Positions 28,579 to 37,824 of a stretch of DNA of 64,000 nt are shown here, piece by piece. Position numbers and translations under genes: made by a program. The notes beneath the pieces were generated by a model. It saw only the letters and a list, made by a program, of their open reading frames with translations. It did no database searches and was not told the origin of the DNA. The stretch comes from Parcubacteria group bacterium (GTDB lineage: Bacteria; Patescibacteriota; Minisyncoccia; Phycocordibacterales; WO2-35-19), in contig JAAZAU010000012.1 of NCBI GenBank assembly GCA_012514175.1, positions 3,479-67,478 on the forward strand, written 5' to 3'. Numbering within the stretch: position 1 is the stretch's first letter; every line of letters begins with the position of its first letter.

Positions 28579-29460
28579 ATGTCCAATAGGCACCTTGCAA
28601 GAACAGTCGTACTACAAACACTCTATGAGTGGGATTTCGGCAACAGCAAAGAAGACCCGAAAGAGATTTTAAAAAGAGATATTTCTGAATTTGCTCCGGG
28701 TATGGATAACAGACATTTTATGCACGATCTTTTGGAAGGAGTTATTTCAAAACAAAAAGACATAGACAATATTATCGTCTCAGCTGCTCCAGAATGGCCT
28801 TTGGACAAAATAAATGCAATAGATAGGAATATTTTAAGGCTTGGTTTGTTTGAGCTTCTTTTTGCTGACAGAGAACAGGTGCCACCCAAAGTAGCCATCA
28901 ACGAAGCAATAGAATTAGCAAAAAAATTTGGAGGCGAAACTAGCAGTAAATTTGTAAACGGAGTCTTGGGTGCTGTTTATAAAGAAATGGGTGAACCAGG
29001 TAAAGATCAGAAAAGCGCCTCTCAAAAACCAGCCACCCAGGAAGCTCATGTTGGAGCTGTGGTTTATGCAAAACATAAAGGTGAAATATACGTGGCCTTG
29101 GTTCATGATGTGTTTGGACACTGGACACTCACCAAGGGCAGGTTAAAAGATGGTTTAAGCGAAGAAGTTGGTATTGTAAATGAAGCCAAAGAAGAACTTG
29201 GTATAGATATAAAAGTTAAAGAAAAGCTCGGTGAAAATTCTTACGAAACTTTCCACCCAGAACGAGGCAAGATTAAAAAACACATCGTTTATTTTCTAGC
29301 TGAAGCCCCGTTTGAAGAATTAACCTTAGAAAACAAGAAAGAAAAAGGTGGTTTAGATGATGTAAAATGGTTTAAATTGAGTGAAATATTGAATTTAAAC
29401 TTCTATGATGATATTTTACCAATAGTCACAAAGGCGATAAATTTATTAGTAAAAAATTAA
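28579..29460 (+). CDS. nusB: Transcription antitermination factor NusB fused to a C-terminal Nudix-like domain
   Basis: NusB N-terminus (RHLARTVVLQTLYEWDF). The C-terminal KGRLKDGLSEEVGIVNEAKEELGI aligns without gaps to the 23-residue Nudix box but with E-to-L and R-to-N substitutions. Confidence 0.65.
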   Translation: MSNRHLARTVVLQTLYEWDFGNSKEDPKEILKRDISEFAPGMDNRHFMHDLLEGVISKQKDIDNIIVSAAPEWPLDKINAIDRNILRLGLFELLFADREQVPPKVAINEAIELAKKFGGETSSKFVNGVLGAVYKEMGEPGKDQKSASQKPATQEAHVGAVVYAKHKGEIYVALVHDVFGHWTLTKGRLKDGLSEEVGIVNEAKEELGIDIKVKEKLGENSYETFHPERGKIKKHIVYFLAEAPFEELTLENKKEKGGLDDVKWFKLSEILNLNFYDDILPIVTKAINLLVKN

Positions 29461-29542
29461 CCTAATTAACCTAATTGCTCTAAATCTCAATTAAGATTGA
29501 ATTTATTTAGAATAATTAGGATACTTAGGTCAATTAAAAAAA

Positions 29543-30244
29543 TTGACCATGGAAAAAAATTTTGACGAATTTGAAAACATTATTGGTGTAAAGTTCAAGA
29601 ACAAAGACTTGCTACAGCAAGCTCTGACTCATCGTTCGTTTCTAAACGAACATAAAGCCCTAAAAAACAAACACAATGAACGTTTGGAGTTTTTGGGAGA
29701 CGCCGTTCTTGAACTTGTAATCACCGATTATTTATATAAAGAATACCCAGATAAAACTGAGGGTGATTTAACCTCTATTAGAAGCGCTTTAGTTAACGCA
29801 ACCACTTGCGCCAAAGTTGCAAAAAATTTGGCTGTAAACGACTTTATTCTCCTCTCTAAAGGTGAGACTAAAGACACTGGTAGAGCTAGACAATACATTT
29901 TAGCTAACGCTCTTGAAGCTATCATTGGCGCTATTTATTTAGATGCTGGTTATGAAAGTGCTAAAGATTTCATAATGAAAAATATTGCCCCTATGACAGA
30001 AGAAATTGTAAAAGAAAAACTTTGGATGGATGCAAAAAGTAAATTTCAAGAAAAAGCTCAAGATATAGCAAGCATTACACCTTCATACAAAACACTTAAA
30101 GAGACCGGACCAGACCATGACAAAAAATTTACCGTTGGAGTTTTCCTTGGCGAAACTTTAGTAGCCGAAGGAACAGGTAACTCAAAACAAGACGCTGAAC
30201 AATCCGCTGCTCGTCATGCTCTTCAAAAAAAAGGTTGGGATTAA
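29543..30244 (+). CDS. rnc: Ribonuclease III
   Basis: ERLEFLGDAVLELVI signature plus a C-terminal dsRBD. Confidence 0.9.
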   Translation: MTMEKNFDEFENIIGVKFKNKDLLQQALTHRSFLNEHKALKNKHNERLEFLGDAVLELVITDYLYKEYPDKTEGDLTSIRSALVNATTCAKVAKNLAVNDFILLSKGETKDTGRARQYILANALEAIIGAIYLDAGYESAKDFIMKNIAPMTEEIVKEKLWMDAKSKFQEKAQDIASITPSYKTLKETGPDHDKKFTVGVFLGETLVAEGTGNSKQDAEQSAARHALQKKGWD

Positions 30245-30264
30245 AATTGTGATAAAATAGTTTT

Positions 30265-32520
30265 ATGCTTAAATCACTTCAGATTTCTGGATTTAAAAGT
30301 TTTGCTAAAAAAACAGAACTTGAATTTAAATCACAAATTACCGCTATTGTTGGACCAAACGGTTCCGGTAAATCCAATGTAGCTGAAGCTTTTCGTTTTG
30401 CTCTTGGTGAACAATCCATTAAGTCTATGCGTGGCAAACGCGGTGAAGACCTTATTTGGAACGGTAGCGCTGAAGTTAGTAGAGCTGGACGAGCGTCAGT
30501 AAAAGTCGTCTTGGACAACAAAAACAATCTTTTTTCCGCTGTAAGCAAGGCAACCGAAGGGGGCGATTTTGAAGAAGCTGTTATAGAAAGAGTAGTAAAC
30601 CGTGACGGCACCAACGAATATTATTTAAACGGTTCACTAGTGCGTCTTAAAGATATTATTGAACTACTTGCTAATGCCCATATTGGCGCTTCTGGACATC
30701 ATATTATTTCTCAAGGTGAAGCAGATCGCATACTCAGCGCTAATATGAAAGAAAGAAAAGAAATGGTTGAAGACGCTTTGGGACTTAAAATTTATCAATA
30801 TAAAAGAGAAGAGAGCGAAAGAAAACTTGCTAAAACTGAAGAAAATATTAAACAAGTGGAATCACTCCGCAGGGAAATTGCGCCCCATATTCGTTTTCTT
30901 AAAAAACAGGTTGAAAAAGTTGAGAAAGCTGAAGAACTAAAAAACAAACTTTCTAAATTTTACAGAGAGTATCTAAAACGAGAAAAAATTTATTTAGACA
31001 CACAAAAAAACCAATTAGCAAAAGAGAAAAATCCGGTAATAGAAAGATTGGTTCAGTTGGAAAAAGAAATGGAAGAAGCTAAGCGTATTTTGGCAAATTC
31101 AGCTAAAAAAGATGAGAAAAGCGAAGAGCTCATAGCAATTGAAAACAAAATAAAAAATGAGCGAGACAGCAGAGACAAACTTTACCGCGATATAGGTAGA
31201 ATAGAGGGCGAGATCAACGCTAATCGCAGAAATATTGAGAGAATAGAAGCCGAACAGAGATCTGAAGAAACAAAAACTATACCTCTTAGAGAAGTAGAAG
31301 AATTGGAAAAAGAAATTTCTCAATATTCAGAAGTAACAAAAATTATACAGAAAATAAGAGATTTTATTATTAAACATAAAACTAACTTCAATAGTAAAAA
31401 TTTAAATGAAATTATAGAAAATAATCAAAATCTAGAAAATAAAAAAATAGAAATAGAAGAAAGTATAAAAATTATAGACAACACGCTAACCAATTTCACT
31501 GCCGAATATCAACAAATAAAAGATTCCATAGAAAGAGAAAAAGATTCTAGTCGGGAAGCTGAAAAAAATATTTTCAAAATATCGGGCGAACAAAGCGAAA
31601 CCAGAAGCAAACTTGAACTGCTCAAAGAAAAAGAATACAGATTAAATTTAGAAGAGAATGATTGGAAATTGCAGATTCAAGAAGGTGGGGTATTGTTGGG
31701 CACAGCTATTTTAGGATTTGAAAACGAAACACTAACCGAAGAAAATCAGTCAGAAAACTTTTCTTCAAATAATTTTACAAACCTTGAACCACGCGAAAAA
31801 CAAGAGGAAAGAAAAAAAGAACTTGAAAGGATGAAAATTAGATTAGAAGAACTCGGTGGAGCAGGCGGTAGTGAAGTAATAAAAGAATACAAAGAAACTT
31901 CAGAAAGAGATGCGTTTTTAGCCAAAGAATTAGAAGATTTAAAAAAGTCAGCCGAATCTTTACAACAACTCATCAAAGAACTTTTAGAAAAATTAGATGT
32001 GGAATTCAGAGAAGGTATAAATAAAATCAATAAAACTTTTCAGGAATTTTTCTCAATGATGTTTGGAGGTGGCGAAGCCAAGTTAGAAATAATTAAAAAT
32101 TATAAATTAAAAGCGAAAAATCCAATTGAGGAAGAAATAGAAAACACAGAAGAACAAAAACCGGAAGAAGGTATAGAAATAAACGTTTCGCTTCCTCGTA
32201 AACGTATACGAGGTCTGGATATGCTTTCTGGTGGCGAAAGAGCTCTAACCTCTATCGCGCTTCTTTTCGCTATTTCGCAAGTAAACCCACCACCATTTAT
32301 TATTTTGGATGAAACTGACGCGGCATTAGACGAGGCTAATTCTAAAAAATACGGCGATATGATTGAATCACTTTCTAAAGTCTCTCAACTTATTTTAATT
32401 ACTCATAATCGCGAAACTATGTCTCGTGCTGGTATTATTTACGGTGTAACTATGGGACGCGACGGTGTCTCGCGACTACTTTCTATTGCTTTTGATGAAG
32501 CTGTTACAGTCGCAAAATAA
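30265..32520 (+). CDS. smc: SMC-family chromosome segregation ATPase (short, 751 aa)
   Basis: N-terminal Walker A (ISGFKSFA...GPNGSGKSN), long coiled coils, and a C-terminal LSGGERALTSIALLFAI...FIILDETDAALD. Confidence 0.65.
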   Translation: MLKSLQISGFKSFAKKTELEFKSQITAIVGPNGSGKSNVAEAFRFALGEQSIKSMRGKRGEDLIWNGSAEVSRAGRASVKVVLDNKNNLFSAVSKATEGGDFEEAVIERVVNRDGTNEYYLNGSLVRLKDIIELLANAHIGASGHHIISQGEADRILSANMKERKEMVEDALGLKIYQYKREESERKLAKTEENIKQVESLRREIAPHIRFLKKQVEKVEKAEELKNKLSKFYREYLKREKIYLDTQKNQLAKEKNPVIERLVQLEKEMEEAKRILANSAKKDEKSEELIAIENKIKNERDSRDKLYRDIGRIEGEINANRRNIERIEAEQRSEETKTIPLREVEELEKEISQYSEVTKIIQKIRDFIIKHKTNFNSKNLNEIIENNQNLENKKIEIEESIKIIDNTLTNFTAEYQQIKDSIEREKDSSREAEKNIFKISGEQSETRSKLELLKEKEYRLNLEENDWKLQIQEGGVLLGTAILGFENETLTEENQSENFSSNNFTNLEPREKQEERKKELERMKIRLEELGGAGGSEVIKEYKETSERDAFLAKELEDLKKSAESLQQLIKELLEKLDVEFREGINKINKTFQEFFSMMFGGGEAKLEIIKNYKLKAKNPIEEEIENTEEQKPEEGIEINVSLPRKRIRGLDMLSGGERALTSIALLFAISQVNPPPFIILDETDAALDEANSKKYGDMIESLSKVSQLILITHNRETMSRAGIIYGVTMGRDGVSRLLSIAFDEAVTVAK

Positions 32521-32668
32521 AAGAGCCGTTACACCCAGTGGAGGAAAGTGTAACGGCTATCAGGCTCTTGTGTGTCCGGCCCGGTGAACTAACCAACACC
32601 AGGCAAAACAACTTGACGCACAAATGAACCTGACAACCTTATTATACTCTTATTTAAAATTTTGTCAA
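32521..32668 (-). ncRNA. Candidate small structured RNA or extended terminator region (GC-rich) between convergent smc and rnr
   Basis: Minus strand: -35 ttgaca, 16 nt spacer, -10 tataat immediately after the rnr stop; about 120 nt of GC-rich sequence; then a strong hairpin (aagagcc/gccgttacac...gtgtaacggc/ggctctt) followed by ttttattttg. Confidence 0.3.
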
Positions 32669-34690
32669 TCAGACTAATTCAAAGTCCAAAGTTTTGCGAT
32701 CTAAGTCAGCTGAGATAAGTTTAACCTTAACAATATCACCAAGAGCAAGTTTGTTTTTGGTGTGTTCACCAATTATGCAATAATTTTTAGAATTTAGTCT
32801 GTAGTGATCGTCTGTTAAACTTTTAATACGCACCAAGCCTTCCGCTTTAGTCTCTGGATCTTCCACATAAACACCCCATTCAGTCACACCAGAAACCACA
32901 ACCTCAAACTCTTCGCCAATTTTATCTTGCATAAATTCAACTTGCTTATACTTAACACTGTCTCTTTCAGCTGTTTGAATAATTATTTCTTTTTCACTAG
33001 CTTTTTCTGCGATCTTTTTTAATTTGGCAATTTCATTTTTAGGAATTGGCTCACCTTTTAGATATCTATTTAAAATACGATGCACCACTAAATCTGGATA
33101 ACGACGAATGGGAGATGTGAAATGGGTATAATATTTAAAAGCCAAACCAAAATGACCAATATTTCTAGTAGAATATTCTGCTTTAGCCATAGAGCGAATA
33201 ACAGCGGTTTTTACAAGAGATTCACCGATATGACCTTCTATTTGAGAAAATAGAAAATTCAAATCTTTAGCTCTAACGCCTTTTCCGCTAATTGGTAATT
33301 TGTATCCTAAAGCTTTCACAAAAACGGAAAGTTCTTCAATTTTTTCCATATCTGGCAAATCGTGAACTCTAAAAATACTAGCTCCTCCTCTTTTTTTTAT
33401 TTTATCGCTTATAAATTTGGCAACTTCACGGTTCGCAAGAAGCATCCATTCTTCAATCATTTTCATAGTGTCTAATCTTGGCTCCTTATAAATTCTGAGA
33501 GGTTTACCTCTTGCATCAAGCTCAAACTTGATTTCGTCTGCTTCAAATTCTATAGCGTCGTTTTTGCTTTTTTCTTTTCTGTAAATTTCAGCAATACGAT
33601 TAAGTTCCTGAAGAGGCACCACAAAGTTAAGCGAAGAAGATGAATCTTTTGTTGTATTTAATATTTCTTGCGCTTCTTCATAACTAAATCTTCTGTTTGA
33701 ATTGATTATGGTCTTACCAAACCAACGATCTAAAACTTCGCCAGTCTTTTTTTTGATATCAAACACAGCTGAAAAAGTATAACGATCCGCATTTGGCATA
33801 AGTGAACAAATATCATTACTTAAAACTTCTGGAAGCATCGGAATAGTCCTGTCTACTAAATAAGTAGAAAAATTTCTCTCAGAAGCTTCTCTGTCTAGCG
33901 CCGAACCCGGACTTACAAAATGAGAAACGTCGGCAATGTGGATACCAACTCTGATTTTACCATCACCAATTTCTTCATACGAAAGGGCATCATCAAAATC
34001 TTTTGCATCTTTAGGATCTATTGTGAAAGTAATTGCATTTCTGAAGTCAAGACGTTTATTACCTCTAGGAAAATTCTTTAAAGAAAGTTTAGATAAGTTT
34101 TGCGAAAAAACTTGAACACTTTCTGAAGAAAATTTTTTCTTTAAATTAGTAGCTTCTTTTTCAACTTGAGCAGGAAAGTCATAAACAATACCTTTATCAA
34201 GCAAAATACTCTGCATTTCAGTTTCGTGAACGCCTTTTGGACCGATTATAGTAACAATTTGACCTTTAGGATTAAGATTTGGGTTAGTCCAATTTTCAAT
34301 TTTTACTAAAACTTTAAGTCCCGCTTTCGCTTCTTTAGGAAAATTTAAAATATCCACTTTTCTATAAAATTTCCAATCATCAGGCACAAAAGATAACCCG
34401 TTGCCAGATTTTTCCAGAGTGCCCACAAAATTAGTTTTGTTTCTTTTTATTATTTTGGTTACTTTGCCTTTTTTTCTATCTCTATCTTTACCAATAATTT
34501 CTATTTCTACTTCATCCTTGTCTAGAGCACAATTCAAATTTTCTTCAAAAACTATAATGTCCTCACCTTGCGTCGCACCCCGACCTTTAACGGAAATGGA
34601 TCTCGGAATCACCACAAAACCAACTGGCCTGTCTGTGATCTTGATGGTTCCCACATATTTTTTCTTTTTCGTTTTTCTTTTTTTAGCCAT
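32669..34690 (-). CDS. rnr: Ribonuclease R (RNB-family 3'-5' exoribonuclease)
   Basis: RNB motif HFGLAFKYYTHFTSPIRRYPDLVVHR and a C-terminal S1 domain. Confidence 0.85.
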   Translation of the reverse strand: MAKKRKTKKKKYVGTIKITDRPVGFVVIPRSISVKGRGATQGEDIIVFEENLNCALDKDEVEIEIIGKDRDRKKGKVTKIIKRNKTNFVGTLEKSGNGLSFVPDDWKFYRKVDILNFPKEAKAGLKVLVKIENWTNPNLNPKGQIVTIIGPKGVHETEMQSILLDKGIVYDFPAQVEKEATNLKKKFSSESVQVFSQNLSKLSLKNFPRGNKRLDFRNAITFTIDPKDAKDFDDALSYEEIGDGKIRVGIHIADVSHFVSPGSALDREASERNFSTYLVDRTIPMLPEVLSNDICSLMPNADRYTFSAVFDIKKKTGEVLDRWFGKTIINSNRRFSYEEAQEILNTTKDSSSSLNFVVPLQELNRIAEIYRKEKSKNDAIEFEADEIKFELDARGKPLRIYKEPRLDTMKMIEEWMLLANREVAKFISDKIKKRGGASIFRVHDLPDMEKIEELSVFVKALGYKLPISGKGVRAKDLNFLFSQIEGHIGESLVKTAVIRSMAKAEYSTRNIGHFGLAFKYYTHFTSPIRRYPDLVVHRILNRYLKGEPIPKNEIAKLKKIAEKASEKEIIIQTAERDSVKYKQVEFMQDKIGEEFEVVVSGVTEWGVYVEDPETKAEGLVRIKSLTDDHYRLNSKNYCIIGEHTKNKLALGDIVKVKLISADLDRKTLDFELV

Positions 34691-34767
34691 ATTCGCCCTA
34701 TATTAACACAGTTTTATGATAGATGTCGCGACACTTTATACTGAGCACCAATAAACTCTTGATAGGG

Positions 34768-34795: not shown

Positions 34796-35140
34796 AAATA
34801 TACTCTTTAAATAAGAGCTGTTTTTTGAGTTCGTTGACATATCTTGAAATAACAAAGTACAAGAAAAGAGTTGTTCACTTTGAGCCTAGGTAAGGTTTGG
34901 TGAGCAACTGCAAGTCTCAAATTTTAAGTAGTCCGTTTAGACTATTATAAAAATGTTGAAAACTTAGTGATTTCGAAAAAACTGACCAGGATCAAATCAA
35001 GAGTAAAAACTAAAAAATATTTTTTGTTTTGTTCCGTTCTGTTTATTTTGATTTATCAAAATTAAGCATCTGCCAACAAGGCAGAAACTAAAGTAACGAA
35101 AATTATCCGTCTCTTTGGCGGATAAAATAAACTTCGTTTT

Positions 35141-36820
<1,680 letters not shown>

Positions 36821-36912
36821 GCTTTGCTTTGCAAAGTGTCAACGGAGGTTGGGTTTTGAAAAGCCTTTGGCTAACAAAATCCACGAACGGAACAAAACAA
36901 AAAATATTTTTC

Positions 36913-36940
36913 AAAAAAGCGCTTATCTGAGCGCTTTTTT
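36913..36940 (+). terminator. Intrinsic terminator directly downstream of 16S
   Basis: aagcgc-ttatctga-gcgctt hairpin + tttt. Confidence 0.6.
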
Positions 36941-36967
36941 GTTACCATTTTGTTGTCATTTTTCCTC

Positions 36968-36997
36968 TTGACTTTTATACACGAATTATGCTATAAT
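36968..36997 (+). promoter_or_regulatory. Near-consensus extended -10 sigma70 promoter (module 1)
   Basis: -35 ttgact, 18 nt spacer, tgc-tataat. Confidence 0.55.
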
Positions 36998-37023
36998 TAG
37001 GGGTAGGAAAGGAGGAAATTATA

Positions 37024-37251
37024 ATGAAAAATTTCCTTATCAGTGTTGTTGTTTTTTTCTTTTTTTGCTTTGTTCTGCACCTTGTTGCAGAGCAAAGCAG
37101 CAAAAAGATGTTGTTTGTTGAGAAGGTTTGGCCCGATGGTCCAATAGTGAGGATTGTAAACCATAAGGGCCAAGAGGTTAGCATTGACACTAACCTCGAA
37201 AATAGGACTTATGAAGTAATCTGGGTCGCCCCGGAACACTTTCGTAAATAA
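37024..37251 (+). CDS. Small secreted protein (75 aa; signal peptide + about 50 aa mature domain)
   Basis: Strong SD aaaggagg 8 nt upstream of the ATG; hydrophobic N-terminus MKNFLISVVVFFFFCFVLHLVA; elevated GC relative to neighbours. Confidence 0.5.
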   Translation: MKNFLISVVVFFFFCFVLHLVAEQSSKKMLFVEKVWPDGPIVRIVNHKGQEVSIDTNLENRTYEVIWVAPEHFRK

Positions 37252-37269
37252 GTAAAAGGGGCGACCTAA

Positions 37270-37300
37270 GCGGCATAGTTACAGTTTATGCCGCTTTTTT
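37270..37300 (+). terminator. Intrinsic terminator of module 1
   Basis: gcggcata-gttacagtt-tatgccgc hairpin + tttttt. Confidence 0.6.
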
Positions 37301-37301
37301 C

Positions 37302-37329
37302 TTGCAAAAATTATTTTTTGTGCTATAAT
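37302..37329 (+). promoter_or_regulatory. Near-consensus extended -10 sigma70 promoter (module 2)
   Basis: -35 ttgcaa, 16 nt spacer, tgc-tataat; shares the gctataatta core with module 1. Confidence 0.5.
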
Positions 37330-37373
37330 TATAGCAGAATAACACCACCAATCAAAAACAAAAAGGAGGTAAG

Positions 37374-37613
37374 ATGACTTGGAAAAAAGTGGCGGAAGGT
37401 TTGTTTACTGTCTCTTTTCTGATTGCCTGCGTTGTGATTGGATGGGTGATCAGAGGTTGGACGTTCGGAGTCGGTATCGCAATAGGAGCACTGACAGTGT
37501 GGCTGTTGCTGAACCGGCGATCCTCAAAACCTGAGCTTTTCGTTGTGGTCAAAAGCTACAACGAGAAACAGGTAGCGGACAATTGGCGCGGCCTGAATGA
37601 TCAGGATATTTGA
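37374..37613 (+). CDS. Small membrane protein with two predicted TM helices (79 aa) and a charged C-terminal tail
   Basis: SD aaggaggt 3-4 nt upstream of the ATG; two hydrophobic helices (GLFTVSFLIACVVIGWVI and FGVGIAIGALTVWLLL); about 48-50% GC against a roughly 36% background. Confidence 0.5.
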   Translation: MTWKKVAEGLFTVSFLIACVVIGWVIRGWTFGVGIAIGALTVWLLLNRRSSKPELFVVVKSYNEKQVADNWRGLNDQDI

Positions 37614-37635
37614 TCATGGGCCGCCAAAACAAATC

Positions 37636-37675
37636 AGGAGGTGAATCAAACGTTCGCCTCCTTTTTCTTTTTCTT
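37636..37675 (+). terminator. Intrinsic terminator of module 2
   Basis: aggaggtg-aatcaaacgtt-cgcctcct hairpin + tttttctttttc. Confidence 0.6.
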
Positions 37676-37746
37676 GTTTTAAATAATATTTTTTGTTATA
37701 TTTTTAATAGATTTGATCCGCCTTTGCTAAAGCTTTGGCGGAATAA

Positions 37747-37824
37747 GCGCGTGTAGCTCAGTCTGGTTAGAGCACCCCACTGATAATGGGGAGGTCTCAG
37801 GTTCGATTCCTGACACGCGCACCA
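37747..37824 (+). tRNA. tRNA-Ile (anticodon GAT), CCA encoded
   Basis: Acceptor gcgcgtg/cacgcgc, anticodon loop ctgataa, T-arm tcagg-ttcgatt-cctga, 3' acca. Confidence 0.85.

Follow-up and report, generated by a model that had tools for sequence, protein, structure and literature searches.

A probable lineage-restricted small RNA gene with its own predicted promoter and terminator at the 3′ end of rnr in a Parcubacteria group bacterium

Introduction

What is encoded in the short stretch of DNA that separates the convergent genes smc and rnr in a Parcubacteria group bacterium? The original prediction, made from the sequence of the window (the whole 64 kb stretch of DNA that was analysed here), was that this spacer holds an independently transcribed small RNA on the minus strand. 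The question is of wider interest for the Patescibacteria (CPR), a small-genome and mostly symbiotic group for which a full-text literature search found no described small RNAs. A conserved promoter-driven RNA in such an organism would be a starting point for studying riboregulation. The locus is also a clear example of a site at the end of a gene that is taken up by an RNA gene here and, in sister lineages, is empty or holds small protein genes.

Here, the promoter, the fold, the terminator and the relatives of this spacer are described, and several explanations are weighed. The one that we favour, with modest confidence, is that the minus strand of the spacer carries a lineage-restricted gene for a small non-coding RNA, with its own predicted promoter and terminator.

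The smc/rnr locus

The genes at the locus are as follows.

30265-32520, plus strand: smc, encoding a short SMC protein (751 aa; Pfam SMC_N), convergent with rnr
32521-32668: smc/rnr spacer, 148 nt, between the convergent genes
32669-34690, minus strand: rnr, encoding RNase R (673 aa; Pfam RNB, CSD2 and S1)

The smc gene is the last of a row composed of nusB-nudix, rnc and smc, with rnc directly upstream of it. The closest relatives of the RNase R are found in uncultured Patescibacteria of the Paceibacteria / Zambryskibacteria group, with 60-73% protein identity. The contig carrying the smc/rnr spacer is present in several metagenomes. Two of the genes in this part of the window (28579-32520) have unusual forms, a NusB-NUDIX fusion protein of 293 aa and the short SMC. 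Typical bacterial SMC proteins have about 1,200 aa. Both the fusion and the short SMC recur in relatives, whose SMC proteins have 726-779 aa.

The spacer was first singled out for a GC content of 50% or more, unlike that of the other spacers. This figure holds for the part predicted to be transcribed (50.9%) and not for the spacer as a whole (43.9%), in a window of about 35% GC. The distinction from the other spacers stands: among the 24 spacers of at least 60 nt in the window, the one between smc and rnr has the highest GC content, and the others range from 20 to 39%.

A predicted promoter at the rnr stop codon

Three features at the rnr end of the spacer define where transcription is predicted to begin.

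32663-32668, minus strand: -35 hexamer TTGACA, directly after the rnr stop codon TGA (32669-32671)
32641-32646, minus strand: -10 hexamer TATAAT, separated from the -35 hexamer by a 16-nt spacer; 12/12 match
32634-32638, minus strand: predicted transcription start, from the sequence and the alignments

The sigma-70-type consensus (TTGACA, 16-18 nt, TATAAT) is matched at 12/12 positions, which makes this site a candidate promoter by sequence and bears out the proposal of a minus-strand promoter abutting the rnr stop codon. The match is the sole one of its kind in the 64 kb window, for which shuffled sequences give an expectation of 0.18, and the promoter scan of the whole window returned only two 11/12 matches.

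The site is shared with the two relatives, L084 and L105, in which homologs of the element were found. Their promoters combine TTGACA and a spacer of 16 or 17 nt with TAATTT as the -10 hexamer (9/12). TAATTT keeps T1, A2 and T6, which are three of the six consensus positions. In all three lineages (the window, L084 and L105), a purine lies 7 nt past the -10 hexamer, and the first helix of the RNA, P1, starts 5 nt past it.

Fold and terminator of the minus-strand RNA

Downstream of the predicted start, the following elements were located, listed from the 5′ to the 3′ end of the RNA.

32626-32635, minus strand: helix P1, 5′ strand (UGUCAGGUUC), from the fold; its outer 6 pairs include 2 that covary across the three lineages
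32603-32619, minus strand: segment GCGUCAAGUUGUUUUGC, hairpin A (6 bp) in L084 and L105, degenerate in the window
32579-32604, minus strand: apical hairpin P4 (GCCUGGUG / CACCGGGC) with a 10-nt loop UUGGUUAGUU (32587-32596), from the fold
32558-32567, minus strand: helix P1, 3′ strand (GAGCCUGAUA), directly abutting the terminator hairpin
32525-32557, minus strand: terminator hairpin, 12-bp stem GCCGUUACACUU / GGGUGUAACGGC with a 9-nt loop UCCUCCACU (32537-32545)
32513-32524, minus strand: U-tract UCUUUUAUUUUG, predicted from sequence and fold to be the 3′ end of the small RNA and of the rnr mRNA

Does this RNA fold better than chance? The folding check that the original prediction had proposed gave a stable minus-strand structure of -53.4 kcal/mol (z = -5.4), and none of 200 shuffled sequences folded as well. 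In the fold, helix P1 (10 bp) locks the 5′ end of the RNA and is followed by an inner helix and the apical hairpin P4, so that only three short loops and the U-tail are left unpaired. The window copy is without the 5′ strand of an inner helix and has been re-paired, with hairpin A turned into an internal loop: the 5′ part of GCGUCAAGUUGUUUUGC pairs with GACACAC (32568-32576), and AAGUUGUUUU forms the internal loop. About 85 nt of structured RNA precede the terminator hairpin; the figure of about 120 nt first given for this part is that of the whole transcript, terminator hairpin included.

The 3′ end of the RNA has the form of an intrinsic terminator, a GC-rich 12-bp stem followed by UCUUUUAUUUUG, and L084 and L105 both retain this arrangement. 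In these two lineages the stem is nearly identical and contains one covarying pair, and the cores of its loop read CCUCC (window), CUCC (L084) and UUCC (L105). A simple terminator scan misses the hairpin because its 9-nt loop exceeds the 8-nt limit of the scan. The hairpin and the U-tract described originally (a stem followed by ttttattttg) are thus present, and the tract extends further, to about 32513, where it overlaps the smc stop codon and the final smc codons on the opposite strand. The proposed outer stem, aagagcc...ggctctt around the inner one, is not real as drawn, since outer and inner stems would use the same GCC/GGC. Instead, GAGCC pairs with the 5′ end of the RNA in helix P1, a pairing that is also seen in the relatives.

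Homologs in two other lineages

The homolog in L084 lies directly after rnr (nhmmer E = 1.7e-17), and the RNase R of L084 is the sister of that of the window, with 80% aligned identity. The second homolog, in L105 from Hainich groundwater, is also located downstream of rnr, in a lineage whose RNase R falls on a different branch of the tree. The three copies have in common TTGACA, an AAGAGTA motif and a TAnnnT -10 hexamer. In L105 a distance of 63 nt lies between the rnr stop codon and the whole unit, and a 79-aa gene lies between the unit and smc. This displacement from both genes indicates that the promoter travels with the RNA and not with the gene junction. The homologs fold into a three-way junction in L084 (z = -8.2) and a four-way junction in L105 (z = -3.3).

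Covariation was assessed in a structural alignment (A5) of these three sequences, which was made by hand and forced through the aligner with N padding. In this hand-fitted alignment 95.5% of the cells pair. Seven pairs change on both sides while remaining paired, against a shuffle mean of 2.7, and none of 500 shuffles reached seven. They are distributed over P1 (two), hairpin A (two), P4 (two) and the terminator (one). Every cell of P4 is paired. The changes in hairpin A are between L084 and L105, and two of its six pairs are broken in the window. Control alignments slid by 1-3 columns gave 0-2 double-change pairs and 31-43% paired cells.

Nucleotide identity between the window and L084 is 75-90% in the flanking genes versus 43-73% in the middle of the element, and the element as a whole is no more identical to L084 than flanking coding DNA. 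Low identity with retained pairing means that the helices have been preserved as the sequence changed; conservation of the loops is poor among the three lineages. The statistics of covariation are weak because there are only three sequences, aligned by hand to suit the structure, so that covariation is supportive of the structure, short of conclusive. The conservation check thus yielded homologs with compensatory base changes and, judged from these comparisons, the minus-strand structured RNA is real and under selection.

A narrow distribution

How widespread is this element? The convergent rnr/smc layout is common in Paceibacteria, and the content of the spacer varies. In three relatives (L004, L102 and L103) the spacer is about 50 nt long and holds a plain hairpin, and in L088 it is reduced to 2 nt. 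Since relatives terminate with spacers of about 50 nt or 2 nt, the 85-nt domain is not needed for termination. In L101 and L107 the spacer contains an ORF for a basic, Cys-rich protein of 66-67 aa, and in L086 an ORF of 127 aa. The element was absent from at least 12 related rnr-smc spacers. Among the relatives whose loci were retrieved by synteny, only L084 and L105 carry it, and the other eight do not.

Searches for further copies were made in several ways. blastn and nhmmer against 80 rnr loci from GTDB genomes recovered only the organism's own copies, and covariance model R1, run over 93 sources (the window and 92 fetched loci), recovered only the three known copies. A metagenome pattern scan for the terminator hairpin returned the same species and chance matches only; its sensitivity is low, as a copy like that of L105 would be missed. 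Nothing real was found in the viral collection by two pattern scans and a covariance-model search of 80 viral loci. A repeat or mobile element was considered and rejected, as the window holds no second copy. The element is most likely a small RNA gene of a narrow Zambryskibacteria-like lineage.

The small proteins and hairpins of related loci deserve a mention of their own. The 66-67-aa ORFs (MSSKRR..CKFC..GWH..; L101:503-706 and L107:3912-4112) have no Pfam match. In L101 the ORF has a strong ribosome-binding site, AAGGAGG, and its own promoter-like site, which overlaps the stop codon of rnr. The hairpins GTAGCGATTAATCGCTAC and GCCCCGATGATTAGTCGGGGC recur 3′ of rnr (L085:4390-4460, L105:3297-3360 and L106:5110-5160) and may be conserved terminators of small opposite-strand genes.

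Comparison with RNA families

No Rfam family was matched by the window at the gathering threshold, or by the region, L084 and L105 at E values up to 10, where chance matches on the terminator were all that appeared. The original prediction held that the spacer would be simply a distal rnr terminator if it had no Rfam family and was lacking in relatives. The first is the case and the second holds for most relatives, with L084 and L105 carrying the element.

The original remark that the element resembles none of 4.5S/SRP RNA, tmRNA, 6S RNA and RNase P RNA agrees with both Rfam and ARAGORN. An SRP RNA would be recognized by a domain IV hairpin with a GNRA-type tetraloop, conserved internal loops (with an AGCA motif side) and a covariance match. 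Here, neither Bacteria_small_SRP nor Bacteria_large_SRP was matched, the apical loop has 10 nt and the domain IV motif is absent. For 6S RNA there was no Rfam match, and the folded domain, at about 85 nt, is shorter than the rod of some 150-200 nt, opened by a large central bubble, that characterizes 6S RNA. ARAGORN found five tRNAs elsewhere in the window and no tmRNA, and Rfam likewise gave no match to tmRNA or a tRNA-like RNA. The covariance models of 5S rRNA and RNase P RNA were not matched, nor was bacterial Y RNA in the window, L084 or L105. A riboswitch was rejected because in none of the three lineages is the element followed by a gene on its own strand. Coding potential was rejected as well, as indels of 9-16 nt separate the homologs and leave no conserved reading frame. 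An RNA of the RsaE/RoxS kind was set aside, since there is one pyrimidine-rich loop (CCUCC, CUCC or UUCC) and not at least two conserved C-rich motifs, again with no Rfam match. The element matches no known RNA family or described small RNA. On present evidence it is an orphan candidate of narrow distribution.

Alternative explanations

The proposal of an independent small RNA gains from the conservation of promoter, fold and terminator as a unit in two other lineages. It is limited by the relatives that are without the element, by a -10 hexamer that in the two homologs is only TAATTT, and by the position of the RNA, which is at the same time the 3′ UTR and terminator of rnr. In the window, as in L084, no terminator separates the RNA from the rnr stop codon. 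Transcripts of rnr should therefore read through the element, so that the RNA serves, at the least, as 3′ UTR and terminator of rnr as well.

Could the element be this and nothing else? It would then act in cis at the 3′ end of rnr, perhaps as a stable structure that blocks 3′ exonucleases or as a site through which RNase R exerts feedback, and the promoter-like bases would contribute little. In all three lineages the element follows rnr directly and on the same strand, also where smc is no longer adjacent. This position fits such a module, as do the missing rnr terminator, the stop codon that abuts or overlaps the -35 hexamer in the window and L084, and the weak -10 hexamer in two of the three lineages. 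Against it, all three lineages have a perfect -35 hexamer and a constant distance between the -10 hexamer and P1, the L105 promoter has moved together with the RNA, and all other examined relatives with the same rnr gene lack the element. We regard a purely cis-acting role as unlikely, if credible.

The extent of base pairing raises a second possibility, a protein-binding or housekeeping-type structured RNA, such as a partner or decoy of RNase R or RNase III, that does not regulate by base pairing. The RNA is almost fully paired, its 5′ end is sequestered, and its strong predicted promoter and GC-rich sequence recall those of stable RNAs. Its helices are kept while its loop sequences vary, and rnr and rnc are its neighbours. 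Such an RNA would hardly be expected to have so narrow a distribution or to lose a helix strand and hairpin A, as the window copy has, which is unusual for a fixed protein scaffold. It also has no match to SRP RNA, 6S RNA, RNase P RNA, tmRNA, 5S rRNA or Y RNA. This explanation is doubtful, and less probable than a cis-acting module. A specific form of it by analogy, in which the RNA would be a dedicated RNase R partner (a structured adaptor or decoy) much as Y RNA tunes PNPase through Ro, is a long shot. If true, it would mean a partner RNA that was kept linked to rnr in three lineages of a phylum that is not known to have any characterised regulatory RNA.

The third alternative is a two-way terminator or insulator between convergent genes, with the promoter match a chance product of AT-rich sequence. 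Both strands do fold well, on the plus strand AU-rich sequence comes after the long hairpin, and absence from most relatives is as expected for a dispensable spacer. The plus strand folds less well, however (-46.1 kcal/mol), and six G-U pairs of the window-copy model become A-C mismatches on it; together with covariation, the G-U pairs mark the minus strand. The plus strand has no promoter and no proper U-tract, and its U-rich run is set 5 nt away from the stem, unlike in a canonical terminator. A 12/12 match by chance inside 148 nt is expected about 4e-4 times (derived from the shuffle figure), and the promoter bases and spacing are conserved in three lineages. This alternative is improbable, slightly less so than a dedicated RNase R partner. 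Least probable of all is a cis-antisense RNA directed at the tail of the rnc-smc mRNA. Were smc transcripts to extend into the spacer, the two RNAs would form a perfect duplex, to be cut by the RNase III of the same operon. This would suit an smc gene without a canonical terminator on the plus strand and with rnc directly upstream, but the RNA of L105 faces an unrelated 79-aa gene in place of smc, and the RNA overlaps no more than a few bases of smc coding sequence. The conserved geometry of the promoter and the arrangement in L105 are what disfavour both the plain terminator and the antisense RNA.

A working model for the small RNA

The favoured explanation, a small RNA gene, can be put together as follows. 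A sigma-70-type promoter at the rnr stop codon would start transcription near 32634-32638 and give rise to an RNA of about 115-120 nt, which would end at the hairpin at 32525-32557 and its U-tract, at about 32513-32520. The rnr mRNAs would share this terminator and have the RNA as their 3′ UTR, from which it could be released; the small RNA most likely also forms the rnr 3′ UTR. The RNA is predicted to fold into a rod, with its 5′ end in P1 stacked on the terminator hairpin, P4 inside and, in the relatives, hairpin A.

How might such an RNA act? It may act in trans through an unpaired loop. The best candidate would be the terminator loop (CCUCC, CUCC or UUCC), which is pyrimidine-rich in all three lineages and thus suggests pairing with purine-rich sites on mRNAs. 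Pairing through this loop is the weak step of the model because the loops drift, no conserved target was found and most genes have no Shine-Dalgarno site. A target search with whole sequences (RNAduplex, 64 kb window) was non-specific, complements of the conserved loops occur in the 64 kb window at chance level, and no conserved pairing was found with the rnr start region. One candidate target was rejected: in the window the CCUCC loop pairs perfectly with the ribosome-binding site GGAGGAAA of ORF 37024, and the equivalent pairing fails in L105.

Translation signals and rRNA genes in the window

Several observations on translation and rRNA genes were made in the same window. Among 41 long ORFs (at least 150 aa), 34 have no Shine-Dalgarno-like 4-mer upstream. 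A TAnnnT hexamer ends 4-10 nt before the start in 19 of 40 long ORFs (background 15%), and 11 of these 19 have a TGn extension. From the scarcity of Shine-Dalgarno sites and these hexamers, leaderless mRNAs from extended -10 promoters look common. The three lineages have nearly the same sequence upstream of rnr (AAAACTGTGTTAATATAGGGCGAATATG; 34691-34730 on the minus strand, L084:470-505 and L105:1010-1045), and an extended -10-like sequence, TGTTAATAT, ends 9 nt before the ATG. This suggests that the leader of the rnr mRNA is very short or absent.

The 16S rRNA has no anti-Shine-Dalgarno at the canonical place: the Rfam alignment ends in GGAAUAUUUCAAGG in place of the consensus GGAUCACCUCCUUU (36660-36825). 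The nearest CCUCC to the end of the alignment is in AUAUCCUCCUUCG (36808-36820), about 135 nt further and after several hairpins. This could reflect an insertion before the 3′ tail or a lost anti-Shine-Dalgarno. No 23S or 5S gene is found in the 27 kb that remain after the 16S gene (35139-37824 region), so the rRNA genes appear unlinked. A tRNA-Ile gene lies 1 kb downstream of the 16S gene and a tRNA-Ala gene 26 kb away. Within 36968-37615, in the interval between the 16S gene and tRNA-Ile, two ORFs for small hydrophobic proteins, 37024 (75 aa) and 37374 (79 aa), lie downstream of an 11/12 promoter (TTGACT-18-TATAAT). These two ORFs have the only strong AAGGAGG ribosome-binding sites seen in the window.

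Comparison with known systems

Three kinds of known systems offer a comparison with the smc/rnr spacer RNA. The first is that of small RNAs from mRNA 3′ ends. DapZ and MicL of enterobacteria are 3′-end small RNAs that have their own promoter. Like them, the spacer RNA is situated at the end of a protein gene on the same strand, has its own predicted promoter at the gene end and uses a terminator common to RNA and mRNA, so that either a primary transcript or an mRNA-derived origin is possible. This same-strand 3′ position and the terminator shared with rnr give it the layout of a 3′-end small RNA, and L084 has it likewise. Unlike DapZ and MicL, to which it has no sequence or structural relation, it belongs to a different phylum and is far more fully base-paired.

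The second kind is found in Gram-positive bacteria, where C-rich loops of RsaE/RoxS and of the RNAIII hairpins cover ribosome-binding sites. The spacer RNA is similarly short, ends in a strong terminator and has a long stable stem that is capped by a pyrimidine-rich loop (CCUCC in the window). It differs in that this is a single loop, which drifts to CUCC and UUCC, and in that most genes of this organism are without Shine-Dalgarno sites.

The third kind is the intrinsic terminator between convergent genes. The spacer RNA resembles it in that a GC-rich 12-bp hairpin with a U-tract ends rnr and sits at the smc stop codon. A plain intrinsic terminator, for which relatives use far less sequence, has no counterpart to the consensus promoter and the conserved fold of about 85 nt that lie upstream of this hairpin.
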